This document shows, one piece after another, positions 32,035-56,884 of a stretch of 64,000 nt of DNA. The notes below the pieces were generated by a model, which had not been told where the DNA came from, searched no databases, and saw only the letters and a list, made by a program, of their open reading frames with translations. Source of the stretch: a bacterium (GTDB lineage: Bacteria; Patescibacteriota; Minisyncoccia; Phycocordibacterales; UBA6899); NCBI GenBank assembly GCA_043756865.1, contig JAYUQG010000024.1:91259-155258 (forward strand), given 5' to 3'. Each line of letters opens with the position of its first letter. Position 1 is the stretch's first letter. Made by a program: the position numbers and the translations under genes.

Positions 32035-32061
32035 CTATCCCGAGTTATGCACACCCACCCC

Positions 32062-32089
32062 TTGCGTAATTCTACACAGGGTGTATATT
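32062..32089 (+). promoter_or_regulatory. sigma70-like promoter of repeat unit A1
   Basis: TTGCGT-16 nt-TATATT has the same architecture as the tRNA promoters in this window. Confidence 0.45.
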
Positions 32090-32095
32090 TCATTC

Positions 32096-32150
32096 ATCGA
32101 GACGATACGTCGTCTCAATTTAACAAAGCCTGTCACCCGACGGGCTTTTT
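32096..32150 (+). ncRNA. candidate ~55 nt sRNA, copy 1 (inside repeat unit A1, 32043-32154)
   Basis: Downstream of the promoter lies a 7-bp hairpin gagacga-tacg-tcgtctc (32099-32116). It is followed by the linker aatttaacaaa and a terminator gcctgtc-accc-gacgggc + tttttt. There is no ORF, and both neighbouring genes end or point away. Confidence 0.45.
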
Positions 32151-32177
32151 TACGCCTCGATAAAGTATTAAGTATTT

Positions 32178-32226
32178 CAGCGCGAAGCGCAGAGATAGTG
32201 AGTCCTCGAGCGACAACGCCAAATAG
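32178..32226 (+). repeat. repeat B, copy 1
   Basis: cagcgcgaagcgcagagatagtgagtcctcgagcgacaacgccaaatag is about 80% identical to 33667-33714. Confidence 0.55.
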
Positions 32227-32262: not shown

Positions 32263-33591
32263 TTAAGCTACTTCGTCGATTTTCTCAAGCGGGCGATCAT
32301 TGATTGCACGTTCAAGTGAACTCAAACGTTTGTAGATTGAGAGCATTTCGACAATAGTCGGCCAATTGAGGACCAAATATTGAAAAGAACTTTCTACTCT
32401 TCCGAATGCGCGCACAATCTGCTGCATGACTCCAAGGGTGAATCCTGCAAGTATCGCCTCTTTGGAAAGCAGGGTTGGTGCGAGTGCGATGTAGGGAACG
32501 AGTGCACCCGCCTGTAGATAGCTATACCGCACCATGTTGAAGTACATGTAGTGAAAGTACATCCGAAAGTAGTTTGTTCTCACGTGACCAAACAGCTCAC
32601 GCAATGTCTTCGGTTGTGCCCGAGTTTCGTCCTCTTCGCCGAATACTAGCTCCTTGCGGTAAGCGTGCTCCACTCGTTGGTTGTGGAATTTCAATGTCGG
32701 CAGATAATAACCCGTCAGTGCGAGCACAATCGTACCGAAAACAGACCAGCAGACTGCAATAATCACCAATCCATGGGCGATCGGTCCGATGACGGGTATC
32801 TCCGAGACAAACTTCGTCGAGAGCATCCAAAGAATCGGCAAGAACGCAATGAGCGTCATCACCGCATCAAGCAGTCCCGCACCCAATCCTTCCATGATGT
32901 CTGCAAAACGCATCGTGTCGTCTTGAATACGTTGGGACGCTCCTTCGATGTGACGGACTTTGCTCCATTTCCCAGTATAGTACTCGTTCATCGCGGTGCG
33001 CCACCGGAAGTTGTAGTGCTGGATGAAATAGTTTCCCAGCGTTCTCACAATCACAAACACCGCTGCAATGGTGAAAAAGGTGGCCAGACGTCCGTAGTAC
33101 TCAGTATTTTCGATAGTTCCGGGGTTCGCAAACATGGTTTGAATCATGTTGTAAAACCCACCGAACCATTCGTTAATCATGACATCGAGTTGCACCTGAA
33201 ACCACGTGAAAAAGATAATCACAGCGGAACCAAGAAGCGACCACTTCAGCCATTTGTGTGAACTACAGAAGTACCAGCAGGCAATAAATATTCCGTAGCA
33301 AGGGATGAGGAATTGGTATGCCCAAAAAGTCACCGCGCTTCCGAGCGCACTTATCTGGGATTGCACCAACTTTACTCGCTCGGGGTCTGTCTTTGCACCG
33401 AATCGCGCCGCTTCCTTTTGTAGCGTTTCGAGTAATCCGTAGTCGAGTTGAGCAAAGCCGAACCATTGACCAACGGAATACATTTGACCTGTTTGCTCTC
33501 CTAATGTGAACCAAAACACCAAGCAGGCAAGTGCCCATATCACAAATGAGCCAAAGAAGAGGAGCGGCCTCGGAAAGAAGGAATTAAACAT
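32263..33591 (-). CDS. sbmA: SbmA/BacA-family peptide (antimicrobial peptide/cofactor) transporter
   Basis: It is collinear with E. coli SbmA as I recall it. Examples: MFNSFFPRPLLFFGSFVIWAL vs MFKSFFPKPGTFFLSAFVWAL, FRWRTAMNEYY, RHIEGASQRIQDDTMRFA, FHNQRVEHAYRKELV, YFHYMYFN and SIYKRL. Confidence 0.9.
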   Translation of the reverse strand: MFNSFFPRPLLFFGSFVIWALACLVFWFTLGEQTGQMYSVGQWFGFAQLDYGLLETLQKEAARFGAKTDPERVKLVQSQISALGSAVTFWAYQFLIPCYGIFIACWYFCSSHKWLKWSLLGSAVIIFFTWFQVQLDVMINEWFGGFYNMIQTMFANPGTIENTEYYGRLATFFTIAAVFVIVRTLGNYFIQHYNFRWRTAMNEYYTGKWSKVRHIEGASQRIQDDTMRFADIMEGLGAGLLDAVMTLIAFLPILWMLSTKFVSEIPVIGPIAHGLVIIAVCWSVFGTIVLALTGYYLPTLKFHNQRVEHAYRKELVFGEEDETRAQPKTLRELFGHVRTNYFRMYFHYMYFNMVRYSYLQAGALVPYIALAPTLLSKEAILAGFTLGVMQQIVRAFGRVESSFQYLVLNWPTIVEMLSIYKRLSSLERAINDRPLEKIDEVA

Positions 33592-33666
33592 TGGGGGACC
33601 CCTTTTGTGTCGAGAACTTTGTCTGTCAAAAGTCTAAAGGAAGGCGCAAATATAGCAACTGCATTA

Positions 33667-33714
33667 AGCGCGAAGCACCCGGATAGTGAGTCCGCGAGCG
33701 GTAACGTCAAATAG
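33667..33714 (+). repeat. repeat B, copy 2 (directly abuts unit A2)
   Basis: Sequence is agcgcgaagcacccggatagtgagtccgcgagcggtaacgtcaaatag. Confidence 0.55.
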
Positions 33715-33739
33715 CCCCCAAGTTATCCACACCCACCCC

Positions 33740-33767
33740 TTGCGTAATTCTACACAGGGTGTATATT
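33740..33767 (+). promoter_or_regulatory. sigma70-like promoter of repeat unit A2
   Basis: The sequence is identical to 32062-32089. Confidence 0.45.
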
Positions 33768-33773
33768 TCATTC

Positions 33774-33828
33774 ATCGAGACGATACGTCGTCTCAATTTA
33801 ACAAAGCCCGTCTCTGACGGGCTTTTTT
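33774..33828 (+). ncRNA. candidate ~55 nt sRNA, copy 2 (inside repeat unit A2, 33721-33831)
   Basis: Copy 2 is identical to copy 1 through the hairpin and linker. Its terminator stem is gcccgtc-tct-gacgggc, and the differences from copy 1 keep pairing (C-G in place of the T-G wobble). Confidence 0.45.
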
Positions 33829-33856
33829 ACGTCTCCACAACCGCCACAGCTTTTTC

Positions 33857-35918: not shown

Positions 35919-35989
35919 TGCGGGTTCGTCTAATGGTAGGACGTTACCCTCTGGAGGTAAATATTGGGGTTCGAGTCCCTGACCCGCAG
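35919..35989 (+). tRNA. tRNA-Gln (CTG); CCA not encoded
   Basis: Acceptor TGCGGGT/ACCCGCA has the U1-A72 pair typical of bacterial tRNA-Gln. The anticodon loop is CTCTGGA and the T-loop is TTCGAGT. Confidence 0.85.
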
Positions 35990-36002
35990 TTACCACACAA
36001 AA

Positions 36003-36029
36003 ACACTCTGCCAAGAGTGTTTTTGTTTT
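36003..36029 (+). terminator. rho-independent terminator of tRNA-Gln
   Basis: acactct-gcca-agagtgt followed by ttttgtttt. Confidence 0.75.
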
Positions 36030-36186
36030 GTGGTAACTCGCGGGTCAGGGACTCGAAATGCGTAAGGTGGTATACAAGACGAGCGAAGCGAGTGCTTGTC
36101 ACCGAGCCGGGGTCGAGAGCACTTTGTAGTTCGGTGGCCTTGCGCCGAAATACTTAGTGACTCGTGACCGAGTCCCTGACCCGCAG
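36030..36186 (+). repeat. copy X of a structured repeat family with 16-bp terminal inverted repeats derived from, or identical to, the tRNA-Gln 3' end
   Basis: gcgggtcagggactcg (36040-36055) is the exact reverse complement of cgagtccctgacccgc (36169-36184). An internal hairpin ttcggtg-gccttg-cgccgaa lies at 36130-36149. The unit is homologous to 11400-11519(-) and, at its ends, to 37154-37331. Confidence 0.65.
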
Positions 36187-36199
36187 CAATGTCGCAACG

Positions 36200-36221
36200 T
36201 CACCCTTTTTGGGTGATTTTG
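36200..36221 (+). terminator. hairpin plus T-run directly after repeat X (plus strand)
   Basis: tcaccc-ttttt-gggtga followed by tttt. Confidence 0.45.
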
Positions 36222-36392
36222 CTATGGGTGAAAATTGTTTGTGAGGGTGATGTTTTTCTCCCCCCGCTCAATTATGCCAATATATGTGCGGTGCACCTCG
36301 GCGCGCTCTGTGAGTTTTTCTTGGGAAAGCTCGCGTTTCAAGCGTTCCTCGCGGACTCGTTTGCCGAATTTGGTTAGCAACTGTTTATTCAT
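36222..36392 (-). CDS. XRE-family helix-turn-helix transcriptional regulator (56 aa; below the ORF-track cutoff)
   Basis: My translation of the minus strand is MNKQLLTKFGKRVREERLKRELSQEKLTERAEVHRTYIGIIERGEKNITLTNNFHP. This is the classic HTH_3 pattern (LSQEKLAE...RTYI..IERGE.N.T). Confidence 0.7.
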   Translation of the reverse strand: MNKQLLTKFGKRVREERLKRELSQEKLTERAEVHRTYIGIIERGEKNITLTNNFHP

Positions 36393-36452
36393 ATCTACAT
36401 GTACAGTGTAGGAAGTTGCCTACCATGGTTCTACATACTAAAGTTAGCAAAT

Positions 36453-37043
36453 ATGGACAATAATGCGGTGATATTTATACTAGTTGTTTTTGTTGTTTTT
36501 ATTGTGATGAAGATGTTTTTTCAAAAAAAGACACACACAAACACTCATTCAAAAAGCGGACTAATCCTTTCAATCATCTCGCTTTTGTTACCATTCGCGA
36601 AGGAGTTTTTAGAAAAGAGACAGGAGGAAAAGAAGTATATTACAGAAGACGCTCGATATAGTAAAAAACAATATTTCATGACGACCGCTGAGCATCATGT
36701 TTTCGACCAGTTGTTAAAAATAGCAGGGGAGAAATATCACGTCTTTCCGCAGGTGCACTACAGTAAAATTATGTACGCCGAGGGACAGCAGAATTTCCAT
36801 AATCCGTGGTTCAACAAGATAGACCGAAAGTCCGCAGACTTTGTACTTTTTGACAAGCACGACATTTCTCCTGTTTTGGTGATTGAGCATGACGATAAGA
36901 CTCATAATCGTAAAGACCGAATTGAAAGGGACGATTTTATTGACCACACACTTGAAAAAAGTGGAATTTCAATTGTGCATGTTCGACCATTCGCGACCGA
37001 AGAGGAACTGAAGAAACTACTCCAAGTAAAAATCAGTATATAA
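36453..37043 (+). CDS. DUF2726-domain (restriction-endonuclease-like fold) protein with N-terminal TM helices
   Basis: The pattern ...FMTTAEHHVFDQLLKIAGEKYHVFPQVHYSKIM...KSADFVLFDKHDISPVLVIEHDDKTHNRKDRIERDDFI...GISIVHV matches DUF2726. ATG at 36453 is the chosen start. Confidence 0.65.
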   Translation: MDNNAVIFILVVFVVFIVMKMFFQKKTHTNTHSKSGLILSIISLLLPFAKEFLEKRQEEKKYITEDARYSKKQYFMTTAEHHVFDQLLKIAGEKYHVFPQVHYSKIMYAEGQQNFHNPWFNKIDRKSADFVLFDKHDISPVLVIEHDDKTHNRKDRIERDDFIDHTLEKSGISIVHVRPFATEEELKKLLQVKISI

Positions 37044-37153: not shown

Positions 37154-37331
37154 CAGGGACTCGAAGCCGTTCTCCCCTATTTGTGAAGGATTCTTATCCT
37201 GAGTAAATGGAAAACGGGTACTGCCCCTGTAAGGGGAGAGTCTCTGACTCGGAAGACTGAGGCGAAACACTTGGCACATAAGCACTCCTGTGCGAATATG
37301 TTTAGTAACTAATGACCAGTCCCTGACCCGC
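37154..37331 (+). repeat. copy Z of the structured repeat family (ends conserved, interior different)
   Basis: The 5' end is cagggactcgaagcc. The 3' end gtttagtaactaatgaccagtccctgacccgc compares with acttagtgactcgtgaccgagtccctgacccgc in copy X. Confidence 0.5.
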
Positions 37332-37364
37332 TACTAAATTGAGTGAGGTTCGGTTCGCGAGAGT

Positions 37365-39321: not shown

Positions 39322-39806
39322 TTTGTTGGTGCTGTAAGAATATCCCCGAATGGCTTCACTGTACGGTATTTGTTGTAAATGAGGCAGAGACAGAGACGGG
39401 TGTTTTGTGTCTTATCTGTAGCATTCACAAAATGACCCCAGTGACCGAGACGCCTAGTTACAAGAGTAGAAGGGGTGGTAAGATATCCGTATAAGGTCTT
39501 GCCCTACATGTTTGAGACCGAGATAGTCAGCTATCAACAATAGGTTCGGCTGACCGAGTGCTATCAGAACTGGAAATTTAAAGATTCACTCAATTCCATC
39601 CCGACATACCGGCTGAGTGCCGTATCTAGAAACTCAAAGTCGCTCAATGGGCGACTTTGAGTTTGAGTTGTAGAATAGGTCTGTAATCTATAGGATATAC
39701 AAATGTCAGTCAAACTCATTCTGAAGAGATAGTCCGCTTCTTGAAAACCACAGAGCCGGAAGCCATTTGTATTAGGGGTGAATAGGGTGTCAGATTTGCA
39801 ACTTTC

Positions 39807-39835
39807 GGTTCGAATCCCTGAAGCATTACCTCCAC
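39807..39835 (+). repeat. degenerate copy of the tRNA-Gln T-arm/3' flank (possible distal island boundary)
   Basis: ggttcgaatccctga matches tRNA 35968-35982 ggttcgagtccctga at 14/15. It is followed by ..ttacctccac, compared with ..ttaccacac after the tRNA. Confidence 0.4.
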
Positions 39836-39933
39836 GGAATTGCACTGTACTTTCACCTTTTTTTATATTGCCTTGCGTTTTGTGCAGATATTGATAGTTT
39901 GAGCAGTATTATTTATCAACGCACGGCTTCTTT

Positions 39934-43423: not shown

Positions 43424-44034
43424 ATGTCCCAACCCCCCTATCTTGCACCAACAGAAAATGGGTGTAAGTTTACTCATGCGATAAAAAAGAAATTCTCGCT
43501 TGCCTCTGGAGCACTCATGATTCTCGGTGGGTTATTCACTGCAGAGGGTTGCCATAGCGGCGGGTGGTTCGCCGTTTGACCGACTTGCGGCTGCACTCGG
43601 AGAGCTGCGGAGAGACCTCTCCAGCCTCGAAGTGTGCATTAACAACTTGGTACTTGTACCCGGTCCGCAGGGACCTCGAGGTATTCAGGGAGAGGTTGGA
43701 CCGCAGGGTTTACAGGGTGCTCCTGGTACACAGGGAGCGGTCGGTCGACTGATTACTTACCGTGTGACCTTACCATTCGCCGACATCGCGCTTAATTCTT
43801 CGGCTGCTGCAATCGCAAGGTGCGAACGCGGTGACCAGATACTCTGGTGGGTACTTCCTTCAGGGCTCGACTACTCAGATAGTGGACACAAGGCCTGACT
43901 ATATGGATTGGAACGGAACAAGTTTCGTCGAAGGATGGAAAGTCGTAGGTAGCAATACGAATCCTCCGGCAGGAATTCCCTCAAGCATCGGACTCATTGC
44001 CGCATACGCGCTGTGTAATGACGCCACGCCGTAG
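43424..44034 (+). pseudogene. collagen-like triple-helix-repeat surface protein disrupted by two +1 frameshifts
   Basis: Frame 1 (43424-43579) encodes MSQPPYLAPTENGCKFTHAIKKKFSLASGALMILGGLFTAEG..., a signal anchor. Frame 2 (to 43898) encodes GPQGPRGIQGEVGPQGLQGAPGTQGAVG. Frame 3 (43831-44034) encodes a globular C-terminal domain. Confidence 0.6.
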
Positions 44035-44178
44035 TCTTGCTCGTTTATCAAAAAAACCGCTACTTGGCGTTGCCGCTCGAAGACTCACTTTTTTTGCGCG
44101 CTTTGCGCGGTAGATACAAAAAGCCATCACGTGGTTTTTTGGTAACACGGTCTCTATGTATTTTGCTAGAATACATTA

Positions 44179-44529
44179 ATGGAAAAACACCGTATCTACA
44201 CAATGAGCTTTGCTAGTGTTTATCCATTGTATGTCGCCAAGGCAGAGAAAAAGGGGCGTACGAAAAAAGAGGTGGATGAGGTCATCCGTTGGCTGACGAG
44301 GTACAGCCAGAAAGAATTGGGCACGCAACTGAAAAAACAAACAGACTTCGAGACGTTTTTTGGTGAGGCACCCGAAATGAATCCTGCGCGAGCATTAATT
44401 ACCGGTGTTATTTGTGGTGTGCGATTAGAAGATATTGAGGAAGCGCTTATGCGCGAAATCCGTTATCTGGATAAACTTATCGACGAGCTGGCTAAGGGGC
44501 GTACGATGGAGAGGATTTTGCGAAAGTAA
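44179..44529 (+). CDS. DUF2200 family protein
   Basis: The N-terminus [36 protein letters not shown] is characteristic of the family. Confidence 0.75.
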
Positions 44530-44577
44530 CACATCATCAGATGATGGAGTCACCAAGCTAAATGTTACAATTCCAAT

Positions 44578-44967
44578 ATGACAAAAAATAAAACAAAGTA
44601 TGTCGACGGGTTCGTGCTTATTGTTCCTCAAAAAAATGTAGCAGCTTACAAAAAAATGGCACAGAGTGCAGGGAAAATGTGGATGCGCTGTGGCGCTCTT
44701 GAGTACGTGGAATGTATGGGAGACGACATGTATCCACCATCCATGGGCATGCAGTCACTCACTTTTCCTAAATTGGCAAACGCGAAAAAGGGCGAGACGG
44801 TGTGGTTCTCCTACATTACGTACAAGTCTCGTGCGCATCGTGATCAGGTGAACAAAAAAGTATACGCAGAAATGAATAAAGTTGCTGCAAAGTACAAGAA
44901 CATGAAGATGCCCTTTGACATGAAGAAAATGGCATTCGGAGGCTTTAAGGTGATGGTACACAACTAA
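44578..44967 (+). CDS. DUF1428 family protein
   Basis: YVDGFVLIVPQKNVAAYKKMAQSAGKMWMRCGALEYVECMGDD matches the DUF1428 pattern. Confidence 0.75.
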   Translation: MTKNKTKYVDGFVLIVPQKNVAAYKKMAQSAGKMWMRCGALEYVECMGDDMYPPSMGMQSLTFPKLANAKKGETVWFSYITYKSRAHRDQVNKKVYAEMNKVAAKYKNMKMPFDMKKMAFGGFKVMVHN

Positions 44968-44972
44968 TCTCT

Positions 44973-45380
44973 ATGCCGAAATCAGTCACAAAGTTACACG
45001 CAGACATCGAAGCATACAACAAGGCACAGTCTCGTGACGACAAAGCGATTTGCGTCATGTTGGCAGAAGAGATAATGCACAATCTTCCCGATGCTGAAAA
45101 TAAAATCTGGCACAGGCATCCTGTATGGTTTCTGGATGGAAATCCTGTTGTGGGGTATAGCAAGCTGAAGGATTCCGTCCGTCTCCTGTTTTGGAGCGGG
45201 CAGTCTTTTGATGAAGCGGGTTTAACGAATGAGGGAAGTTTTAAGGCAGCGGACATGCGCTATACGGAACTGTCACAGATAAACAAAAAAGACCTCAAGC
45301 GCTGGCTAAGGAAATCCGAGGATATTCAATGGGACTACAAAAACATTGTCAAAAGAAAGGGTGTGCTGATTAGATTGTAA
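44973..45380 (+). CDS. DUF1801 (YdhG-like) domain protein
   Basis: The pattern ...NKIWHRHPVWFLDGNPVVGYSKLKDSVRLLFWSGQSF is present. Confidence 0.65.
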   Translation: MPKSVTKLHADIEAYNKAQSRDDKAICVMLAEEIMHNLPDAENKIWHRHPVWFLDGNPVVGYSKLKDSVRLLFWSGQSFDEAGLTNEGSFKAADMRYTELSQINKKDLKRWLRKSEDIQWDYKNIVKRKGVLIRL

Positions 45381-45482
45381 GCAGCGTTGTGGGTGCATAA
45401 TAACTTCAATATTTGCGAGGGAAAAATTTTGACAACCAGCCGTACGTATTCAAGACGGGAATTCTTTTGATATAATTAGTGC

Positions 45483-45830
45483 ATGCCTGATTTCGTCGTG
45501 AATACGTTTATTTCACTCGAGTCCAACGAACTGAGTGGAATTACATTGCTTGCAGCATTGGGGATCGTGTTTGTATTTTTTTGTTATTGGGGGATGCGAC
45601 TACTTCTGCCTTTGTTCCAAACAAATAAGCTACATATTTCAAAAAGACAAAAAATGATTTATGCATGGGGAGTCGTGGGTATTCTTTCACTTATTTTTTT
45701 AGGTATGATCAGAGAAAAGTTCCTTCCTTGGGTAGATAGCGATATCTTTATTTTCACATTCTCAGCAATTATTGTGTCGGGTTGTATCTATTTTTTGTTG
45801 AAGAAGGAGGATAAGACTATGCAAAAGTGA
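45483..45830 (+). CDS. hypothetical membrane protein (3 TM)
   Basis: The call rests on the ORF and its hydrophobic helices. Confidence 0.5.
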   Translation: MPDFVVNTFISLESNELSGITLLAALGIVFVFFCYWGMRLLLPLFQTNKLHISKRQKMIYAWGVVGILSLIFLGMIREKFLPWVDSDIFIFTFSAIIVSGCIYFLLKKEDKTMQK

Positions 45831-45980
45831 ACTACTGTTTATTCAACCATTCACTCGTTCTCCCTTACGTTTGCTTTAGCATGCACTACGGGACCACGTA
45901 AGATCTGGGGGTGTCACCATGCCCATTCCGCTTAATGATATATTCTGCTACTCTCATTTCATAAATCTAATTTTATACAC

Positions 45981-46424
45981 ATGGCACGCGTCAGCACTTA
46001 TCTCAATTTCACTCGTTCGACGGAAGAAGCATTCAATTTTTACCAGTCAATCTTTGGAGGTACGTTCACGGGCGGAATCGCACGACTCGGTGATGCGCCT
46101 GCACAAGAGGGCATGCCCCCACTTGCTGATGGAGACAAAAATCTCGTTATGCATGTTGCACTCCCGATTCTCGGCGGTCACGTACTCATGGGCACCGATG
46201 CTCCAGAATCACTGGGATTTAAAGTCAGCTTTGGGAACAATATCTATATTAACCTTGAGCCGGACACTCGTACCCAAACAAAGAAATTGTTTGATGCGTT
46301 GTCGCAAGGAGGTAAAATTGAAATGGAGTTACAGGAAATGTTTTGGGGAGACTACTATGGTTCATGCACGGACAAATATGGGGTGCACTGGATGTTTAAT
46401 TGTAGTACTGCCCTTTCCAAATAA
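45981..46424 (+). CDS. VOC (glyoxalase/PhnB-like) family protein
   Basis: MARVSTYLNFTRSTEEAFNFYQSIFGG...LVMHVAL...FWGDYYGSCTDKYGVHWMFN is the typical PhnB/3-demethylubiquinone-methyltransferase-like pattern. Confidence 0.8.
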   Translation: MARVSTYLNFTRSTEEAFNFYQSIFGGTFTGGIARLGDAPAQEGMPPLADGDKNLVMHVALPILGGHVLMGTDAPESLGFKVSFGNNIYINLEPDTRTQTKKLFDALSQGGKIEMELQEMFWGDYYGSCTDKYGVHWMFNCSTALSK

Positions 46425-46603
46425 ACTTAATGAAAAACATGCCACTTTTGCCCCATGCACACCATTCCCGCAAAACCCCTTTTCACCGTAATGCTATTAC
46501 GCCTCAAGGGTTTTTGCGCTTCATGGCAGCGCATGAGACAAAAGTCATCACGTTTGTTCTTGTTAAGTTAATTTAGAAAGAGCAGTAGTAAAACATAACT
46601 CAT

Positions 46604-47011
46604 ATGCCACAAATCACCGTTCACACAAGCGTAAACGCACCGGTGGAAAAAGTTTGGCAATATTACACGGAACCTATGCATGTCACGATGTGGAATAACG
46701 CCTCACCTGATTGGCACTCACCCCACGCAGAGAACGACTTGCGTGTCGGGGGCAACTTTAGCTTCAGAATGGAGGCGATGGACGGCAGTGCGGGATTTGA
46801 TTTTGCGGGGACATACACTGAAATAGTGCCCCTCCAAAAGATTGCATACACTTTTGGTGGCAGAAATGCATCTGTTTTATTTGCAGAACAAGGGGAAAAG
46901 ACCGACGTAACCATTGTGTTTGATGCAGAGTCTGAAAACTCCCTCGTAATGCAGCAAGACGGGTGGCAGGCGATTCTTGATAATTTCAAGAAGCATGTTG
47001 AAGCTGTGTAA
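46604..47011 (+). CDS. SRPBCC (AHSA1/START-like) domain protein
   Basis: The pattern ITVHTSVNAPVEKVWQYYTEP...GGNFSFRMEAMDGSAGFDFAGTYTEIVPLQKIAYTF is present. Confidence 0.8.
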   Translation: MPQITVHTSVNAPVEKVWQYYTEPMHVTMWNNASPDWHSPHAENDLRVGGNFSFRMEAMDGSAGFDFAGTYTEIVPLQKIAYTFGGRNASVLFAEQGEKTDVTIVFDAESENSLVMQQDGWQAILDNFKKHVEAV

Positions 47012-47060
47012 CCTGTTCTGTGCGTTGACAGCACCACAAAGCCATCTATCATGAACTGAG

Positions 47061-47717
47061 ATGTCCCCTGAAGGGAAGCGCATGAATACGCCCATTGCTC
47101 CTCGCCGCGACACTCAACCAAAGCGTACGCGCAAACCGCCACTTCGCTATGCGTTTGATCATCTTGCGATCGTGCTCGATGAGCAAACATATAGGGCATT
47201 GCGTCTGCGCCTGCCTATCCCAAAAGCGCGCGTCGCTTACGAAACACCGTATGTCGGAAACGATGCGGACGGCATGGAGACGTTCGTACTTCAGCGCGAT
47301 GACGTACGTATTGCATTTATGGTGGGAAGAGAAAAAGCAGCGGGTGCTGTTTCTCAGATCACACGGTACCAGATACGTTATGGAAATATGAAGCTCCAGC
47401 ACATCGCACTGCGCACAAATAACATCGAGCGCGCCGTGAGGGAATGGGAACGTGACGGACATCGTTTTCTCACCCGTTCCGCAGACGGCAAGCCTGCGAT
47501 ACTCAAGAGTGTAGATGAGCGTGGTGTGGTGTATCAGTGTTTTACCATGCCGATCGCGGACGGTCTGTTTTTTGAACTGAAGGAAGTATGCAAAAAAGAA
47601 CGCACACTTGTCGGCTTTCAGGAATTTCGAGACGACAACATTGAAGGCCTCTGGGGAGCCGTTGAACGCGAAATTCATGACGGCGAAGATCGATTCTGGC
47701 AGTACACTCTTTTTTGA
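47061..47717 (+). CDS. VOC-superfamily protein resembling the C-terminal module of 4-hydroxyphenylpyruvate dioxygenase
   Basis: The pattern LQHIALRTNNIERAVREWERDGHRFL...VVYQCFTMPIADGLFFELKEV...GFQEFRDDNIEGLWGAVEREI is present. A terminator follows. ATG 47082 is an alternative start. Confidence 0.6.
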   Translation: MSPEGKRMNTPIAPRRDTQPKRTRKPPLRYAFDHLAIVLDEQTYRALRLRLPIPKARVAYETPYVGNDADGMETFVLQRDDVRIAFMVGREKAAGAVSQITRYQIRYGNMKLQHIALRTNNIERAVREWERDGHRFLTRSADGKPAILKSVDERGVVYQCFTMPIADGLFFELKEVCKKERTLVGFQEFRDDNIEGLWGAVEREIHDGEDRFWQYTLF

Positions 47718-47723
47718 CTCCCT

Positions 47724-47752
47724 CCCGCCATCTTGCGCACGGCGGGTTTTTT
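47724..47752 (+). terminator. rho-independent terminator
   Basis: cccgcc-11 nt loop-ggcggg followed by tttttt. Confidence 0.65.
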
Positions 47753-47853
47753 ATACGTTTTTAAAAATCGTATAGGAACGGATTGCATTTGAAGCCCACT
47801 TCAATTGCGCATGCGTGGGCGCACTTGCTATGTAGCTGATAGAATAAGCATAT

Positions 47854-48045
47854 ATGAATCCGAAACTCACATATTTTTCAACCGCGATTATCTTGTCGCT
47901 TTTTATTTTAGTACTCGCAATGTTTGCAGGGTCAGCTTTAAAGGAACCGCAATTATTTTGGCTAGGTACAGTAGCCGTTATTTTTTGTGTTAATCTCGTG
48001 TGCTACATGCTGAGTCGGCGCGCCGCAAAGAAAAAAGCAAAGTGA
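47854..48045 (+). CDS. small two-TM membrane protein (63 aa)
   Basis: The ORF has two hydrophobic helices and a K-rich C-terminus. Confidence 0.45.
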   Translation: MNPKLTYFSTAIILSLFILVLAMFAGSALKEPQLFWLGTVAVIFCVNLVCYMLSRRAAKKKAK

Positions 48046-48174
48046 CTGCCGCTATTTCCAGCTGTGCACCGCAATTACAGTTTTAATGCACCCACACCAT
48101 CCTCTTTGAGTCTGGGCGCTTTTCATTCAAAACACATCTTGAAGGGGTAACGTGAAGGCATAAACGCAAAACAT

Positions 48175-48378
48175 ATGTCCAAACCCAAAATCACCGCACA
48201 GTCACAAGTGGTATTGGATACTTGCGCAAAAAAACTCGATGAGGCGGGGATAGAAGTCTCACACACGGAATACAAGGGAGTCTTTCATGAATTCTTTGGG
48301 ATGATAGGAGCTATCGATGAGGCGAGCGATGCCCTCGCCGAAGCAGCGAGGCGTTTGAATGTGGTATTTGGACAATAA
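48175..48378 (+). pseudogene. C-terminal fragment of an alpha/beta-hydrolase-fold-3 esterase/lipase
   Basis: The 67 aa ORF ...CAKKLDEAGIEVSHTEYKGVFHEFFGMIGAIDEA... matches only the last ~60 residues (catalytic His region, HxF) of ~300 aa esterases. Confidence 0.5.
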
Positions 48379-48426
48379 GCAATCTTCATATTCCGGACTT
48401 TTTGCCGGAGTGTTATACTAGCTCAC

Positions 48427-48852
48427 ATGGACCAAAATTACACATTGATACTCTTGGCTACGGTCGCCCAGTTTATCTTGGGAGCGATGTGGTATTCGCC
48501 GCTTATGTTCGGGAAGTGGTGGATGGAAATCATGGAAAGCACTCATTTATCAAAAGAAGAATTGCAGAAGATACAAAAAGCAATGGCGCCATTCTATGGC
48601 CTGCAATTTTTGCTGACTGTACTCTCTACGTTTGTCCTTTCCCTGTTTATTCATTACCTTCAGATGGCGAACGTTGGTTTTTACGCATACGGCATCGCGG
48701 GGTGGGTGTGGCTCGGTTTTATAGTACCCAGCCAAGTGGCTGGTGTGGTGTGGGCGAATACAAAACAAAAATATTGGGTGAAACAAATTTTTGTGATGAC
48801 CAGCTATTCGTTGGTGGCGATGATGATTGCCGCATGGATATTGTCGCAATAG
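48427..48852 (+). CDS. DUF1761 family membrane protein
   Basis: The N-terminus LILLATVAQFILGAMWYSPLMFGKWWME is characteristic of the family. Confidence 0.7.
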   Translation: MDQNYTLILLATVAQFILGAMWYSPLMFGKWWMEIMESTHLSKEELQKIQKAMAPFYGLQFLLTVLSTFVLSLFIHYLQMANVGFYAYGIAGWVWLGFIVPSQVAGVVWANTKQKYWVKQIFVMTSYSLVAMMIAAWILSQ

Positions 48853-48885
48853 TATCGCAGTAGTAGTATAAATTAAGTACTGAGT

Positions 48886-49080
48886 ATGATCGAAGAAACA
48901 GAGAATGAAGTAAGCACAGAGGCTCCACAAGAAAACAGTCGAGAACTGGGTGATTCACTTGTACCCGACGCTGGTCCCAGTCCTGTTGGCGAAGATACAA
49001 AACTGGGCAGCGGCATCCTTGTCATGGCACTTGTTGGAGTTGCGGTAATTGTGTATGTCTTGTTAATTCAGTCCAATTAA
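48886..49080 (+). CDS. small C-terminally membrane-anchored acidic protein (64 aa)
   Basis: The call rests on the ORF and one C-terminal TM helix. Confidence 0.4.
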   Translation: MIEETENEVSTEAPQENSRELGDSLVPDAGPSPVGEDTKLGSGILVMALVGVAVIVYVLLIQSN

Positions 49081-49120
49081 TGCCATCCCCAACTAATCAT
49101 CTTATAAAAAACTCCTCACT

Positions 49121-49708
49121 ATGTTACATATATATCTCGTACGACACGGCGAGGACCAAGACAATATGCACGGGGTATTGAATGGCCGCAGGGATCAATC
49201 ACTGACGTTGCGCGGTGAAGCGCAGGCTATGAGCGCTGCAAAGCAACTACGCGCACTGGATATACCTTTTGCTGTTGTATACACATCACCACTTGTGCGT
49301 GCCGTCAAAACTGCGGAAATTATTACCAATGAGCTTCGCGCGAAAAGGGCGGAGATACTCTCGGACCTTATTGAGAGAGATTTTGGAGTGATGACTGGGG
49401 AATTGGTTACACGAATTCCCGAATTGTGTGGGCCGAACATTCTCGTGACAGAAAAGAATACATATTTTCTCTCTGCAAAAAAAGCAGAGGCATTTCCTCA
49501 GATGATGACACGGGCACGCCGATTGCTAAAACGCATTGCCTTACGTACGCCGAATGGAGCGGTTATTCTGGTTACTCATGGCGATATCGGGAAGATGATT
49601 TACGCGAGTTACTACGAGTTAGACTGGAAAGAAGTGCTCGAATCGTTACATTTCGACAATTGCGATGTTCTGCTCCTTTCGCCAGATGCAGACCTCGACG
49701 AACCTTAG
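49121..49708 (+). CDS. histidine phosphatase (phosphoglycerate-mutase-like) family protein
   Basis: The RHG motif (LVRHGE) and the distal LVTHGD motif are present. Confidence 0.8.
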   Translation: MLHIYLVRHGEDQDNMHGVLNGRRDQSLTLRGEAQAMSAAKQLRALDIPFAVVYTSPLVRAVKTAEIITNELRAKRAEILSDLIERDFGVMTGELVTRIPELCGPNILVTEKNTYFLSAKKAEAFPQMMTRARRLLKRIALRTPNGAVILVTHGDIGKMIYASYYELDWKEVLESLHFDNCDVLLLSPDADLDEP

Positions 49709-49866
49709 AGCCTATCCCAGCAGGAACTTTCCTGCTGCAACACGCGATCTTCAATAAAAACACGCAAAACCTTTGTCGTCTTGTCTCGACAAGCCTTCGC
49801 AGGTTTTGCATGTTTTTATAATAAAGCTCTCGCGTTTCGCTACGGAGGTCCTACTGGGATAGGCTC
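49708..49866. repeat. ~159 nt nested palindromic element (MITE-like or large RNA hairpin) containing a bidirectional terminator
   Basis: The outer 14-bp inverted repeat is perfect: agagcctatcccag / ctgggataggctct. The inner 17-nt arms aaaaacacgcaaaacct / aggttttgcatgttttt match at 16/17. A small hairpin caggaa-cttt-cctg is also present. Confidence 0.55.
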
Positions 49867-49950
49867 TTATGTGTTCATGCAGGAAGACCGCAATAACTAG
49901 TCCGCACATCCCGTTTCTGCTAATTGCTAAAGTGCGTATAATAGCCACAT

Positions 49951-50502
49951 ATGCAAAAAGTCACACTCAGCGCACTTGTATTCTTACTCGTGCTTTTCCC
50001 GTACTCCGCAAGCGCACACGGAGCAGGGGAGAGTATCCAAGTTGAGCACAACGGATACACGCTTTCGCTCGGTTCTGCTGCGGAATTTGTCACCGCTGCC
50101 GCCGCTGAGCGACTAAATTTGGAAATTGAGACAGTGGGCGATGAGGATTTTCAGGGATATACCGGCGTGTGGGTGCGCATCGTCGACCCAAGCGGTGAGT
50201 TTCTTTTTGCAGGAACAATCGACAAGGCACCTACGGGGCTGTTGACCGGTATGACTTTTTTCTTTCCTGTATCTGGAACATACGATATGACACTGCGATT
50301 TATGGACGATGAAAAAGTCATTGCAGAGGGACAATTCCCGCTTCCAGTCCGCGACAGCAAAGTCTCAGCTGGGGGCACAAAAGAGAATGGGGAAAGTGGT
50401 AAGATGCTGCCGTTGTATTTTTTTGTTTCTGGTTTGGGGGGTCTCATCATCGGACTACTGTTTGCCGTGCGGTTACGCAAGTCAGCACTTACACAAAAGT
50501 AA
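49951..50502 (+). CDS. secreted hypothetical protein with a C-terminal TM anchor
   Basis: It has a signal peptide ...PYSASAHG and a beta-rich domain. It lies upstream of the DUF411 gene. Confidence 0.55.
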   Translation: MQKVTLSALVFLLVLFPYSASAHGAGESIQVEHNGYTLSLGSAAEFVTAAAAERLNLEIETVGDEDFQGYTGVWVRIVDPSGEFLFAGTIDKAPTGLLTGMTFFFPVSGTYDMTLRFMDDEKVIAEGQFPLPVRDSKVSAGGTKENGESGKMLPLYFFVSGLGGLIIGLLFAVRLRKSALTQK

Positions 50503-50510
50503 TTTCTATC

Positions 50511-51212
50511 ATGATTATTCAACGATACTTTTTCGCCCTCATGAGTGTGGTTTGTGTCAGCGTCCCGAGCGCCGTGTTTGCGCACGGTGGCGAGCATCCC
50601 ATGATGATGACTGAGCCACGGTACGCAGCCTACCTCTTGCCGGCGAGCGCCATCTTTGCGGGGTGCATTATTGGCGGGCTTTTGTTTGCGAAAACTCGTT
50701 CAAAAAAAGATGCCGGTATGCTCGGCCTTATCTCCGCACTTGTTGTGTTGATAGTCAGTCCGATGGTGTTCCCGCAATTGGGTAGTACGCCACATGACAT
50801 GAGCACTATGGCACCGATCGGAATGACTCCTGTGGGACAAATACTGTTGGGGTCTACTGCGACCGTGTATCGTTCACCTGGATGCGGTTGCTGTGGAGGA
50901 TATATAGAGGAGCTTAAGGCTGCGGGGGCTGCCGTCACCGAGACACAAGTGACGGATGCGGAGCTGGCTCTATTAAAACAGAAGCATAACGTTCCAAATG
51001 AGTTATATAGTTGCCACACAAGCATCATTGACGGATACGTCGTTGAGGGTCATGTGCCTTTTGAGGCAGTCGCCAAACTCTTGAAAGAGAAACCTACTAT
51101 ATCAGGAATCGCACTCCCGGGGATGCCGATTGGAACACCCGGGATGCCGGGCACGAAGACGAAACCCTTTGAAATTAAAACACTTTCAGGGGAAGAGTTC
51201 ATGAATCTTTAA
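50511..51212 (+). CDS. DUF411 (CopG-like) metal-binding protein with N-terminal TM region
   Basis: The motif SPGCGCCGGYIEELK...CHTSIIDGYVVEGHVP...GMPIGTPGM is present. Confidence 0.8.
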   Translation: MIIQRYFFALMSVVCVSVPSAVFAHGGEHPMMMTEPRYAAYLLPASAIFAGCIIGGLLFAKTRSKKDAGMLGLISALVVLIVSPMVFPQLGSTPHDMSTMAPIGMTPVGQILLGSTATVYRSPGCGCCGGYIEELKAAGAAVTETQVTDAELALLKQKHNVPNELYSCHTSIIDGYVVEGHVPFEAVAKLLKEKPTISGIALPGMPIGTPGMPGTKTKPFEIKTLSGEEFMNL

Positions 51213-51261
51213 TTAAATAGGTTCGTTCAGGGCACGGTATTCAAATGCTATAATAAGTTTA

Positions 51262-52467
51262 ATGAAAAAAATCCTCCTTATCCTTGTGGGAATAGTGCTC
51301 CTCGTTCTCCTTGGGGCCGCACTCTTTGTTTGGTACACCTACGGCAGTATTAATGTTCCTCGCAAGAGTGGCACTCCCGCCACCGCAGGAGCATTCACTG
51401 TCCCAGCAGGTTTTGCGTTCACGGAATTTTCGGGTGACGTGCCTCACGCACGCACGATGGCTATTGCACCGCGGGGAGTGCTTATTGTGGCGCAACCAGC
51501 AGAGGGGATTATTTCCGCACTTCCAGATGCGGACGGAAACCACAAGGCGGAAACACCGGTCATCGTTGTGGAAGGACTTAATCATCCGCATGGCCTCGCG
51601 TTTCGTTGTGTAAATATTGAAACACCTGACGTGTGCAACCTCTATGTAGCCGAACACGATGCACTGAGTGTGTTTACGTACGACGCAGCAACTATGCGTG
51701 CAACAAACAAACAGCATCTCCTCGACCTTCCTGTGTCGAAAGCAATAGGTGCACACAAAACACGTTCGCTCCTTTTTCTTCCGTCACCAAATGAGGATGA
51801 ACTCCTCATTGCGCTCGGCTCCACATGCAATGTGTGCGAAGAAGATGACGAACGTTTTGCGGCGGTGCTTAAATACAACATCAAATCAAAGAAAGTGGAG
51901 CAGTATGCGTCGGGACTCCGAAATGCAGTATATATGACACTCCACCCCGTCACTGGGGCAGTGTGGGCTACTGAGATGGGACGCGATGGGTTGGGTGACG
52001 ACTTGCCTCCAGACGAAGTAAATATTGTGCAGGAAGGTGCATGGTATGGATGGCCGTGGTTTTATGGAAAAAATACTGAGGACATGACGTTTCATCCGAA
52101 TATGCGCCCAAGCTTTGGGCAAATGGCAGCAGAAAGTCTTGTTGATATTCCTGCACACTCCGCACCCCTTGGCATCGGGTTTATACCAGAGGAAGGCTGG
52201 CCTGAGGAATATTGGTTTAATGCGCTTGTGGCTTACCATGGGTCGTGGAATAGAAGTACTCCAACGGGATACAAGGTTGTGCGCATGATGTTTGATCAAG
52301 CGGGAACATACAAGGGTGAAGTAGATTTTATTACCGGTTGGTTGGGTGCTGACGGAAAAACTATTGGCAGGCCCGCTGATGTGCTTGTGCTTTCAGGGGG
52401 CACAATGTATGTGTCCGACGACCAAGCAGGGAAGGTATACGTCCTCACGAACGCTCGAGGAGAGTAA
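51262..52467 (+). CDS. PQQ-dependent sugar (glucose/sorbosone) dehydrogenase-like beta-propeller protein
   Basis: An N-terminal anchor is followed by ...GRDGLGDDLPPDEVNIV..GAWYGWPWFYG...AYHGSWNRS. Confidence 0.7.
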   Translation: MKKILLILVGIVLLVLLGAALFVWYTYGSINVPRKSGTPATAGAFTVPAGFAFTEFSGDVPHARTMAIAPRGVLIVAQPAEGIISALPDADGNHKAETPVIVVEGLNHPHGLAFRCVNIETPDVCNLYVAEHDALSVFTYDAATMRATNKQHLLDLPVSKAIGAHKTRSLLFLPSPNEDELLIALGSTCNVCEEDDERFAAVLKYNIKSKKVEQYASGLRNAVYMTLHPVTGAVWATEMGRDGLGDDLPPDEVNIVQEGAWYGWPWFYGKNTEDMTFHPNMRPSFGQMAAESLVDIPAHSAPLGIGFIPEEGWPEEYWFNALVAYHGSWNRSTPTGYKVVRMMFDQAGTYKGEVDFITGWLGADGKTIGRPADVLVLSGGTMYVSDDQAGKVYVLTNARGE

Positions 52468-52514
52468 TCGTATCCTGTATTGTCATCCGATACGAGACTG
52501 GTAACATAGAACGT

Positions 52515-53858
52515 ATGCACAAAGCCTTCACCTGCGTACTTGGCGTGTTCGTACTATTCTCAGGAACAGTGGTTTATGCACAAGCAGGAGACGGTACTTC
52601 GGGAGGACTCCCTCCTCGCGATTCTTCGGCAGCAACAACTTCAACGGGACAAACGTCACCGACGGGCGACCCCAAACCCGATACTACCCCTTCTCCCGCG
52701 CCCGCAAGCAGCACGCCCCCTTTAGCTGTAGCATCTTCCACCGCTTCCACCCCACCGAGTACTCCCACCGGAAATGCTGTGGCCACCACCTCACCAGCGA
52801 CATTCCCAGTAACGCAAGAGGCACTTCCTGACCCCCAAGTATTCCCCCCGTTCATAGCGCCAATCAGTCACCCTTCTCCTCTCGACCCTCTTGAAGCGAA
52901 CACGGGGGAAAACATCAGCATGTTGCTTTCAATTGTTCTCGCAGGAGCCACTTTTTCGTTGATCGGCGGAGTTCTCGTTGCTGCACGAGCAAAAAAGAAA
53001 ATACCCAAAAGCGACCCATGTGGTGCATTACAAAAAAAGCTCGAACTTGCGCAGTCCGCGCACGAAATGGTTACGGAGCGCATCAGCATGCAGGAGCGAA
53101 TTATTACGCAACTAGAGCGTTCGATAGTTGAAGTGAGAGACGCACTCAAAGGAAAGATACAGGCACAGGTGCGACATGTCGCAGTCAAGATGACGACAGA
53201 AATATTGGAAGCAGAAAAAAGTGGAATACTGGAAGAGTCACTCGCCCTCGCAGGAGAAGCCAAAGTGGCATATGAGCAACTCTCAAAGCGATATAAGCAG
53301 GCGAAAGAATTGATGGAAATACTACAGGCGCGAGCGCATGGACTTTCCAACGAGGTCCGCGAACAGCAAGCACTACTGCAGATTTGCCAAGATGGTGTTG
53401 CTGCACTCACCACGAATCAAGGTGGCGGAGAAAAAATCGCAACTATCGGACACGTGCCCGAAGAAAAAACCATTCTGGTTGACGCGATTGATGCATTTGT
53501 AACCGACGAGGGCATTTTCCGCGAAATGTATGACCTACTCGAGACATACCCACACAGGAAAATTCTACTGACGGGTGCAAATGACGAGCAATGTGCAAAG
53601 TTCAGTTTAGGACTGATGCCCTATGAAGTGTTTACGCAGAAGCACAATCCGGAAAAGACCGACCCCCAATATTATGAACTTATGCTCCGCAATTTTGGTT
53701 TATCGAAAGACGATGTCATTTATTTTGAGCACAACGAGCAGGCCGCGCAAAGCGCAATATCGGTGGGGATTCCGACGTATCATTACGACAGCGCAACCCG
53801 AGACCTGCAATCACTGAAGCAATTTCTTGACACACAGTTAACTTCTCCAATTTTATGA
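52515..53858 (+). CDS. composite membrane protein: signal peptide, P/T/S-rich region, TM helix, coiled coil, C-terminal HAD-like domain
   Basis: The parts are the low-complexity PTGDPKPDTTPSPAPASSTPP region, the TM helix LLSIVLAGATFSLIGGVLVAA, and the C-terminal ...KILLTGANDEQ...KTDPQYYELMLRNFGLSKDDVIYFEHNEQAAQSAISVGI. HAD motif I looks degenerate (VDAIDAF). Confidence 0.5.
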   Translation: MHKAFTCVLGVFVLFSGTVVYAQAGDGTSGGLPPRDSSAATTSTGQTSPTGDPKPDTTPSPAPASSTPPLAVASSTASTPPSTPTGNAVATTSPATFPVTQEALPDPQVFPPFIAPISHPSPLDPLEANTGENISMLLSIVLAGATFSLIGGVLVAARAKKKIPKSDPCGALQKKLELAQSAHEMVTERISMQERIITQLERSIVEVRDALKGKIQAQVRHVAVKMTTEILEAEKSGILEESLALAGEAKVAYEQLSKRYKQAKELMEILQARAHGLSNEVREQQALLQICQDGVAALTTNQGGGEKIATIGHVPEEKTILVDAIDAFVTDEGIFREMYDLLETYPHRKILLTGANDEQCAKFSLGLMPYEVFTQKHNPEKTDPQYYELMLRNFGLSKDDVIYFEHNEQAAQSAISVGIPTYHYDSATRDLQSLKQFLDTQLTSPIL

Positions 53859-54040
53859 AAGATGTAGTTGTTATTTTGGGTGTGGAATAAATGTGGACGG
53901 CTCATTGCCTGAGTTGCCTCGGCGATGCGTCGACAAAGGAATTAGCTTCTGTAATGCCCATGACACTGCTAATATGATTAACATCAGGTACCATAAGAAG
54001 GGCGTTCTCGCTTGGTGAGCAGAGTGTTACCATAAGACAT

Positions 54041-54334
54041 ATGACAAACAGCGCAACCAATAACGCACCCACCGTCTCCATTCAAAAGCTCTCTGACGCA
54101 GAGCTTCGCGAGCGGGGAGTTTTCAATTGGGAGATATGGGAGAAAGAGGTCTCCGAATTTGCATATCATTACGACTCGGAAGAGCAATGTTATTTTCTTG
54201 CTGGGGATGTGGTGGTGACCACTGAGGAGGCAACGTATGCATTCGGAAAAGGAGATTTTGTGGTGTTCCCCAAAGGACTTTCCTGCACTTGGCACATTCG
54301 CGAGGCGGTACGCAAGCACTATCGCTTTGTGTAG
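54041..54334 (+). CDS. cupin domain protein (DUF861 / cupin_3)
   Basis: The pattern WEIWEKEVSEFAYHYDSEEQCYFLAGDVVVT...GDFVVFPKGLSCTWHIREAVRKHYRF is present. Confidence 0.75.
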   Translation: MTNSATNNAPTVSIQKLSDAELRERGVFNWEIWEKEVSEFAYHYDSEEQCYFLAGDVVVTTEEATYAFGKGDFVVFPKGLSCTWHIREAVRKHYRFV

Positions 54335-56856: not shown

Positions 56857-56884
56857 GGATGGATTAATTAAACATCAGTAAAAC

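Follow-up and report, generated by a model that had tools for sequence, protein, structure and literature searches.

What are the structured repeats that stand directly behind tRNA genes in a bacterium of the Patescibacteriota? The question is raised by a 64 000-nt stretch of contig JAYUQG010000024.1 (assembly GCA_043756865.1), called the window hereafter, in which a first-pass annotation had recognized three related copies, here named units X, Y and Z. It proposed that they were a novel small structured RNA, a tRNA-targeting element comparable to miniature inverted-repeat transposable elements (MITEs), or fossil att-flank sequences. Our favoured reading, to which we give about an even chance of being correct, is that X, Y, Z and a fourth unit, W, are small non-coding, non-autonomous integrative elements found throughout the Patescibacteria, which home to the 3′ ends of tRNA and tmRNA genes in a manner resembling integron attC and CTX-phage attP sites.

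All the sequence statements on which X, Y and Z had been described as homologous copies hold. The arms of X, GCGGGTCAGGGACTCG and CGAGTCCCTGACCCGC, pair as a perfect stem of 16 bp; the 24-nt block ACTTAGTRACTCGTGACCGAGTCC is common to X and Y (0 matches expected by chance); and the internal hairpin GGTGGCCTT(C)GCRCC is found in both, with compensatory changes. The hairpin and T-run reported behind X were also located, and we infer that they are the original terminator of tRNA-Gln. The arms of all three copies had been assigned to tRNA-Gln, which is wrong for Y: here the 5′ arm, CAGGAATCGAA, is exactly complementary to the T loop/stem of tRNA-Met (TTCGATTCCTG) and not to that of tRNA-Gln. Copy Z is a genuine but degenerate member. 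It scores poorly in the family covariance model but contains the insert of a long subfamily, including the CCUGUAAGG hairpin, and is thus a decayed member of the family; a third copy of AGTCCCTGACCCGC terminates it. The relatedness of the three copies stands, but the count overlooked unit W, whose addition by the covariance model brings the tRNA loci of the window that carry a unit to three out of four. The host tRNA is always on the strand of the unit (tRNA-Gln for X and Z, tRNA-Met for Y and tRNA-Asp for W). Compared with shuffled sequence, the folding of X, Y and Z gave z-scores of −6.3, −3.0 and −2.1, respectively. The 3′ end of tRNA-Gln, the spacer and the 5′ arm of X together form a near-perfect palindrome of ~87 nt (35970–36057). 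In the minimum-energy fold of positions 35919–36225, calculated as RNA or as DNA, the 3′ end of tRNA-Gln pairs with the 5′ arm of X and the 5′ acceptor strand of the tRNA pairs with the 3′ arm of X, joined in the RNA fold only by the 5′ strand of the T stem; the result is an alternative structure with the look of a ‘giant tRNA’.

The family extends far beyond the window, and its folded members measure 100–250 nt. When species-representative genomes were scanned once with the pattern TTAGTRACTNRTGACCNAGTCC, 112 loci came up, of which 111 are in Patescibacteria and one is a chance match. The latter, in Lactiplantibacillus (L101), has no unit-like sequence around it and lay outside the covariance-model scan. 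Carriers are labelled as members of the Parcubacteria group (Paceibacterota/Paceibacteria, Kaiser-, Nomura-, Vogel-, Yonath-, Campbell-, Wolfe- and Lloydbacteria, and Minisyncoccia); they comprise at least 110 species-level genomes, with several copies per genome. A covariance model built from an alignment of 71 units identified 146 units across 100 loci. Ninety-four of these begin within 150 nt behind a tRNA gene on the same strand, and 18 isotypes, all those sampled, are represented; 21 units follow another unit in tandem, 13 lie at contig edges and a few flank cargo genes. A tRNA gene on the same strand within 300 nt upstream was found in 119 cases, and every other geometry in at most 14. 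One unit (L044, 3550–4142, minus strand) lies behind a tmRNA gene adjoining smpB, with the T arm of this tmRNA matched by the arms of the unit; tmRNA is therefore a target of the family, besides tRNAs. A second core subfamily, ‘type 2’ (...GGGGTCGCGAGTTCTTAGTG...CACTAAGAACTGGAGACCGAGTCC), was noticed in L083 (2381–2524) and L019 (5452–5647), where it shares arrays with type 1. Type 2 cores score only 43–45 bits in the model, and the true family is therefore larger than our count.

The first-pass annotation could match the units to neither tRNA, tmRNA, signal recognition particle RNA, RNase P nor 6S RNA, and no Rfam 15 family was found for them. At gathering score, only the six tRNAs of the window matched Rfam 15; at E ≤ 10, the X/Z and Y/W regions gave only spurious matches to microRNA precursors and plastid sequences; the palindrome that includes the tRNA-Gln spacer was picked up in this way as a microRNA precursor. 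Neither ARAGORN nor Rfam sees a tRNA at the unit positions. Hammerhead and other ribozyme cores were compared by eye and rejected, since the strands of the junction are incompatible with them and Rfam gives no match. [quoted passage not shown] The family is thus apparently undescribed.

Along the tRNA strand, the order is tRNA gene, terminator-like palindromic spacer, 5′ arm (B*), a core folding as a three-way junction, 3′ arm (B) and usually another terminator. The arms tie each unit to its local tRNA gene. B* is the Watson–Crick complement of the T loop, the 3′ strand of the T stem and the 3′ strand of the acceptor stem of that tRNA, and B is a direct copy of the same 3′ end. At 11 variable arm positions (the rest of the T stem, the acceptor 3′ strand and the discriminator), identity to the unit's own tRNA was 7.5 for the 3′ arm and 6.3 for the 5′ arm, as compared with 3.2–3.3 for other isotypes. 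Rare T-loop variants of the neighbouring tRNA (GATTCC, GAATCC, AAATCC) are mirrored by the 5′ arm in six cases out of six. Together with the spacer and the 5′ arm, the 3′ end of the tRNA makes up a single long palindrome that is nearly perfect and takes in the encoded CCA where the tRNA gene has one. Each arm matches the tRNA independently, and sites that differ from the tRNA yet agree between the arms are rare; the outer stem is therefore not maintained by compensatory evolution.

These arms could in principle belong to a degenerate tRNA duplicate with a large T-loop insertion or an intron. The 5′ arm does resemble an acceptor 5′ strand followed by a T-stem 5′ strand, an optional hairpin of the units (P0, see below) occupies the D/anticodon position, and a giant tRNA can be drawn from the global fold. 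However, where the tRNA T stem has a G·U pair, the 5′ arm follows the complement of its 3′ strand at 37 of 50 positions and equals the tRNA 5′ strand at only two, which identifies it as an antisense copy and not as a tRNA pseudogene. The T-loop part of the arm is likewise antisense (ACTCGAA), and both tRNA detectors are silent at the units. The pseudogene explanation is thus not supported and we consider it hardly credible.

Between the arms, the alignment of 71 units supports a three-way junction of P1 (the two arms), P2 and P3. P2 carries a conserved 3 × 2 internal loop; P3 has a G·U pair kept in 68 of the 71 sequences and a conserved U·U mismatch inside CUUAG/CUUAG. Paired cells amount to 91.2 per cent, against 31–41 per cent when the partners are slid by one to three columns, and the covariation score is 0.31, against 0.05–0.07 with slid partners. 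Two single pairs illustrate this, one being AU in 27 sequences, GC in 21, CG in 20 and UA in two, and another UA in 49 and CG in 22, never broken. The first-pass annotation had allowed for there being neither homologues nor covariation, which is clearly not the case. Junction nucleotides are highly conserved, though the search pattern left them free. The unit ends are GGACTCGAA ... CCGAGTCC plus tRNA-derived sequence. P0, a 5′ hairpin of 9 bp (GCAAG....CUGC....CUUGC) whose middle pairs covary, is inserted after the antisense acceptor and before the antisense T stem, a place that in a tRNA belongs to the D and anticodon arms; it was seen in L029, L089, L098, L105 and L108, and at W and Z in the window.

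Several features assign the structure to the tRNA-sense strand: the conservation of the G·U pair, the excess of G·T pairs (121) over A·C pairs (36) on that strand, and the bias of GCGNAGC mini-hairpins flanked by tandem G·A, which number 90 against 6.6 expected and only three for the reverse complement. The folded strand may be RNA or single-stranded DNA, as both fit the data. GC skew is positive across the whole window and the units lie on both strands; thus, a need for resident copies to fold on the lagging-strand template is not supported.

Signs of mobility come from the cores, the arrays and the cargo. In 10 of 51 cases, the nearest core neighbour in another genome was of the same isotype (5.7 expected by chance), so that cores do not cluster by isotype; cores 93 per cent identical were found at tRNA-Asp and tRNA-Gln in different genomes, and a single genome has cores 87 per cent identical at its tRNA-Met and tRNA-Ala. 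An identical block of tRNA end, spacer and B* recurs around differing cores in L083 and L018. Copies distal to the tRNA are decayed, and in L099 and L019 only serial 3′ ends of units are left, as in a graveyard; the same is seen in the window at 39441–39821. Genes are enclosed in some arrays: L040 has the order tRNA-Asp, unit, open reading frame (ORF), unit, with a repeat of the module that starts from the final 7 nt of the tRNA; L053 has a GNAT gene followed by a unit; in L095 the order is unit, DUF4116, unit, ORF, unit; and NUDIX or His-phosphatase genes precede a unit in other loci. In the window, X and Z enclose genes for a helix-turn-helix (HTH) protein and a DUF2726 protein. Behind tRNA-Gln come, in order, the intact X, these two genes, the decayed Z, three ORFs without annotation, three GACCGAG remnants and a T-arm fragment resembling that of tRNA-Gln. 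With this last fragment, a 3.8-kb low-GC island attached to tRNA-Gln probably reaches its distal limit (GC 0.425 over 36–40 kb, against ~0.48–0.50 around). The features of the window are collected in Table 1.

Table 1. Units, host tRNA genes and associated features of the window (bit scores are those of the family covariance model)
Feature	Position	Strand	Remarks
Unit W, divergent, fourth copy	10917–11056	−	Model match 10917–11024, 45.6 bits, E = 4e-11
W antisense acceptor fragment and P0 hairpin (CUGC loop)	11025–11056	−	P0 at 11025–11048
tRNA-Asp(GTC)	11093–11166	−	Followed by terminator, antisense acceptor fragment, P0 hairpin and unit W
Unit Y, full	11398–11520	−	Directly 3′ of tRNA-Met; 100.2 bits
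tRNA-Met(CAT)	11553–11623	−	Template of the Y 5′ arm
tRNA-Gln(CTG)	35919–35989	+	3′ end from T loop to discriminator is the template for the X and Z arms
Spacer between tRNA-Gln and X	35990–36039	+	A-tract/hairpin/T-tract, terminator-like palindrome
Unit X	36040–36186	+	Directly 3′ of tRNA-Gln; 98 bits
X 5′ arm	36040–36057	+	18/18 reverse (Watson–Crick) complement of tRNA-Gln 35970–35987
X core	36058–36168	+	Three-way junction; P2 hairpin tip GAGCGAAGCGAG; P3 hairpin with conserved CUUAG/CUUAG U·U mismatch
X 3′ arm	36169–36186	+	18/18 direct copy of tRNA-Gln 35972–35989
Hairpin and T-run behind X	36199–36217	+	Terminator-like
HTH_3 (XRE-type) cargo ORF	36222–36392	−	Between X and Z
DUF2726 cargo ORF	36399–37043	+	Between X and Z
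P0-type hairpin, CUGC loop	37130–37151	+	Abuts the Z arm on its 5′ side
Unit Z, degenerate, long subfamily	37154–37333	+	After tRNA-Gln; 9.7 bits; 5′ arm CAGGGACTCGAA, 3′ arm CCAGTCCCTGACCCGC
Three decayed unit 3′ ends (GACCGAG)	39441–39559	+	GTGACCGAG, GAGACCGAG, TGACCGAGT; within the 600-nt non-coding stretch 39330–39930
Sense tRNA-Gln-like T-arm fragment	39807–39821	+	GGTTCGAATCCCTGA

In integron attC sites and the CTX attP(+) site, recombination of a folded single-strand site with a duplex target leaves the order end, spacer or cargo, inverted arm, loop, end. By analogy, the order observed here, namely tRNA end, spacer or cargo, inverted arm, structured loop and tRNA end, leads us to propose single-strand recombination for the units. 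The free element would be a closed B–spacer–B*–core molecule that can hold cargo genes between B and spacer. Once the single strand has folded, pairing of B with B* would recreate the duplex of the tRNA gene 3′ end, and a recombinase supplied in trans would then recombine this stem with the tRNA gene, close to CGAGTCC of the T loop. The tRNA would receive from the element a replacement 3′ end and terminator, and the original ones, displaced to the far side, would become the 3′ arm and decay later. Repeated insertion at the same tRNA would build tandem arrays and cassette-like gene arrays whose tRNA-distal copies decay. Recombination of tRNA-specific arm modules with shared cores would explain why the cores ignore isotype. 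Such a mechanism would account for the perfect palindromes, the 3′ arms that are complete and then decay, the tandem and cassette arrays and the use of tmRNA. A bolder form of the proposal, which we regard as possible but rather unlikely, is that the Parcubacteria group possesses a new kind of integron-like gene-capture or mobile-element system, with docking at tRNA and tmRNA gene ends, a conserved three-way-junction ‘tail’ serving as attC, a closing stem templated by the target tRNA that would let one core be re-aimed at any tRNA, and possibly, as its minimal form, a closed single-stranded dumbbell of ~200 nt (DNA or RNA) with a stem imitating the acceptor/T-arm helix of a tRNA.

A number of observations weigh against integrative elements of this kind. 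About half of the 3′ arms match the tRNA at fewer than 9 of 14 positions beyond GAGTC, and these weak matches must be ascribed to decay or deletion if the proposal is to stand. Arms inherited from a previous host tRNA of another isotype are not the answer, as just one of the 49 non-matching arms looks like that of another isotype. This single clear case lies behind a tRNA-Arg gene (L081, 5250–5397, minus strand), where the 3′ arm CTACCGGGCGTACC fits the tail of tRNA-Lys at 12 of 14 positions. Two thirds of the units hold nothing beyond a 45-nt spacer. No recombinase, transposase or reverse transcriptase was linked to the units when 1869 ORFs of 114 loci were clustered all against all; the recurring neighbours, named by eye from their sequences, are housekeeping genes only (such as those for a pseudouridine synthase, IF-2, RbfA and RF-1). 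A Pfam scan of the 57 ORFs of the window revealed no integrase, transposase or reverse transcriptase either. The family was not found among the 2.9 million viral contigs of IMG/VR, where the strict pattern gave 0 matches; a looser 17-mer picked out 41 viral-contig loci, none of which fits the model, and these were discarded as chance matches. Neither an excised form nor a pair of filled and empty orthologous sites was observed. An exact-protein look-up for strain polymorphism returned two contigs only, of which the longer keeps the gene order of the island and the other is too short for the locus. Metagenome relatives of the TfoX neighbour are at most 57 per cent identical and have no units, so that they permit no comparison of filled with empty sites. 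Finally, in the pair L032/L033 the core is 90 per cent identical, against 56 per cent for the outer 5′ arm and ~72 per cent for the spacer. This suggests that the core is under selection after insertion, and fits a function as RNA at least equally well.

These weak points (no recombinase, no excised form, selection on the L032/L033 core) keep alive the explanation of the units as a host non-coding RNA co-transcribed with the tRNA, which we nevertheless hold to be doubtful. The B*/B stem would mimic the acceptor/T-arm helix of the upstream tRNA, letting RNase P, RNase Z and the CCA-adding enzyme excise and complete the unit, and the three-way junction would have its own task as a protein partner, decoy or sensor tied to tRNA metabolism, the element-like spread being secondary. 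The strong covariation and the conserved junction nucleotides suit such an RNA, and so do a structure that is co-oriented with the tRNA and not with replication, the terminator behind the unit, the placement of P0 exactly where the D and anticodon arms would sit, the occupation of most tRNA loci of the window, and a full-length RNA fold able to close the 5′ half of the tRNA onto the 3′ arm of X. However, the promoter scan found no promoter-like site between the tRNA-Gln terminator and X, and the spacer has the look of a terminator that works efficiently in both directions. Only about a quarter to 40 per cent of the units have a complete acceptor-stem part in each arm, and the arms do not co-evolve. 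Many decayed copies stand beside intact ones, cores ignore isotype, and units also occur behind protein-coding cargo genes. In addition, GNA-triloop mini-hairpins are frequent and UUCG loops absent; mini-hairpins such as d(GCGAAGC) are more typical of folded DNA. The strong covariation and the silence of Rfam are compatible with the small structured RNA of the first-pass annotation, but single-stranded DNA would suit the structure equally well, and no promoter was seen.

The regular position of the units would also suit an intergenic repeat similar to the repetitive extragenic palindromic (REP) sequences and bacterial interspersed mosaic elements (BIMEs), or to Correia elements, acting in termination, in protection from 3′ exonucleases or in insulation, with the route of spread left unspecified. 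Each unit is found where the transcription unit of a tRNA, a tmRNA or a cargo gene reaches its 3′ end, and always on the strand of that gene; the units are hairpin-rich, flanked by terminators and present in several copies per genome. REP repeats, in contrast, are short and species-specific, whereas the three-way junction of the units spans 130 nt and has kept its sequence in many candidate phyla of the Parcubacteria group, and a terminator has no need of arms copied from the neighbouring tRNA. We consider this explanation improbable.

Slightly less probable still, in our view, is that the units are passive scars, attP-arm remains of integrase-bearing islands or prophages once inserted in these tRNA genes, as the first-pass annotation had considered under the name of fossil att flanks. 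The direct repeats of the tRNA 3′ end and the low-GC island with its distal tRNA fragment behind tRNA-Gln point in this direction, as do putative membrane proteins, likened by eye only to pilins of type IV secretion systems, which recur downstream in some loci. The resemblance of the 3′ arm to a displaced original tRNA 3′ end can be retained from this idea; the rest of the unit is left unexplained by it. Fossil flanks are insufficient to explain why more than 100 species share a three-way junction that is conserved and covaries; covariation and sequence conservation are far above those of neutral relics. Moreover, no integrase was found near any unit, 94 of the 146 units are without any cargo, an inverted copy of the tRNA end is foreign to double-stranded attP arms, and the viral contigs lack the family.

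Of the three original suggestions, a tRNA-targeting element similar to a MITE comes nearest to the data, in view of the 18 isotypes and tmRNA, the arms matching the local tRNA, the cores that do not follow isotype, the arrays, the cargo and the decayed distal copies. The units share with MITEs (Correia/NEMIS, RUP, ERIC) and with the neisserial intergenic mosaic element (NIME) arrays their small size, non-autonomous and non-coding nature, multiple copies, terminal inverted repeats and RNA-like fold; the dRS3–RS arrays of NIMEs also alternate palindromes with variable blocks. However, the units lack the target-site duplication of MITEs, for which a check had been proposed: what lies beyond the constant portion of the arms is inverted, not directly repeated, and comes from the tRNA. 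Their inverted repeats are copied from the target and vary by locus, their position and orientation relative to tRNAs are strict, and the family is conserved across a whole branch of the superphylum.

Comparison with other known systems places the integrative elements that we favour closer to recombination sites. Integron attC sites are, like the units, imperfect palindromes of 60–150 nt at the 3′ end of a cassette, which act as one specific folded strand marked by mismatches and whose structure is kept by covariation; cassette-like arrangements were found here as well, arrays grow at a fixed chromosomal site, and the cargo is small, unrelated and on the same strand (GNAT, NUDIX, DUFs). Unlike integrons, the units have no IntI, attI or R and L boxes (RYYYAAC/GTTRRRY) and their array starts at a tRNA; they dock at the end of a tRNA or tmRNA gene, have a sequence-conserved three-way junction and a stem that copies the target, and are mostly gene-free. 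In the XerCD-dif system of CTX phage attP(+), one of the integrative mobile elements exploiting Xer (IMEX), a folded single-strand stem imitates the duplex chromosomal target and the recombinase acts in trans. Its integrated order of target copy, body, inverted arm, loop and target copy is the order of the units. Their target, however, is a tRNA 3′ end and not dif, no Xer-type sites were recognized, and a unit can be as small as ~200 nt, without phage genes and absent from viral contigs. Islands integrating into tRNA and tmRNA genes, together with their cargo-only satellites (for example, tycheposons and cis-mobilizable elements, CIMEs), have the tRNA 3′ end directly repeated on the far side of the insert, as is found here, and restore the tRNA; they too accrete in tandem, with more decayed copies distal to the tRNA, and use tmRNA as a target. 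They differ from the units, which have no tyrosine or serine integrase, an additional inverted copy of the tRNA end, a conserved covarying core and a gene-free minimal form.

More distant likenesses were also considered. In tRNA-like processing signals (mascRNA, tRNA-linked small RNAs and the tRNA-like domain of tmRNA), a helix similar to an acceptor/T stem ends a non-tRNA RNA beside or fused with tRNA-type genes; the units, in contrast, have no T loop (it is paired with its antisense), often miss the acceptor and have no Rfam match. Retron msr/msd regions share the presence of inverted repeats, but no reverse transcriptase occurs near any unit. The IS110 bridge RNA and the IS1111 seekRNA differ in that no DEDD-type recombinase is linked to the units and the target-matching segments form the closing stem, not loops. 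From these comparisons, the element would be functionally nearest to attC and CTX-attP sites and to tRNA-targeting satellites, yet it lacks the defining features of each.

Patescibacteria have tiny genomes in which few mobile elements or non-coding RNAs have been characterized, and in the window units are present at most tRNA loci. If the units are mobile elements, they would show how genes and small elements enter these genomes without an element-encoded integrase, represent a recombination site with target-copied arms and provide a marker for genomic islands in metagenome-assembled genomes. If they are RNA, they form a new, abundant class of tRNA-linked RNAs.

Two other regions of the window deserve mention. 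Positions 43500–58000 hold a long run of small accessory ORFs on the same strand (among them DUF2200, DUF1428, DUF1801, AHSA1, His_Phos_1, DUF411, Ham1, DoxX and DUF218), with a cassette-like look; neither units nor other shared repeats were found between the accessory ORFs at 43–58 kb. A repeat of ~190 nt (32039–32226 and 33664–33840), without a match in Rfam at gathering score, brackets an SbmA/BacA-like gene at 32263–33591 on the minus strand. Its two copies consist of blocks that are 97, 88 and 82 per cent identical and stand in different order, and a promoter-like stretch lies inside the repeat.

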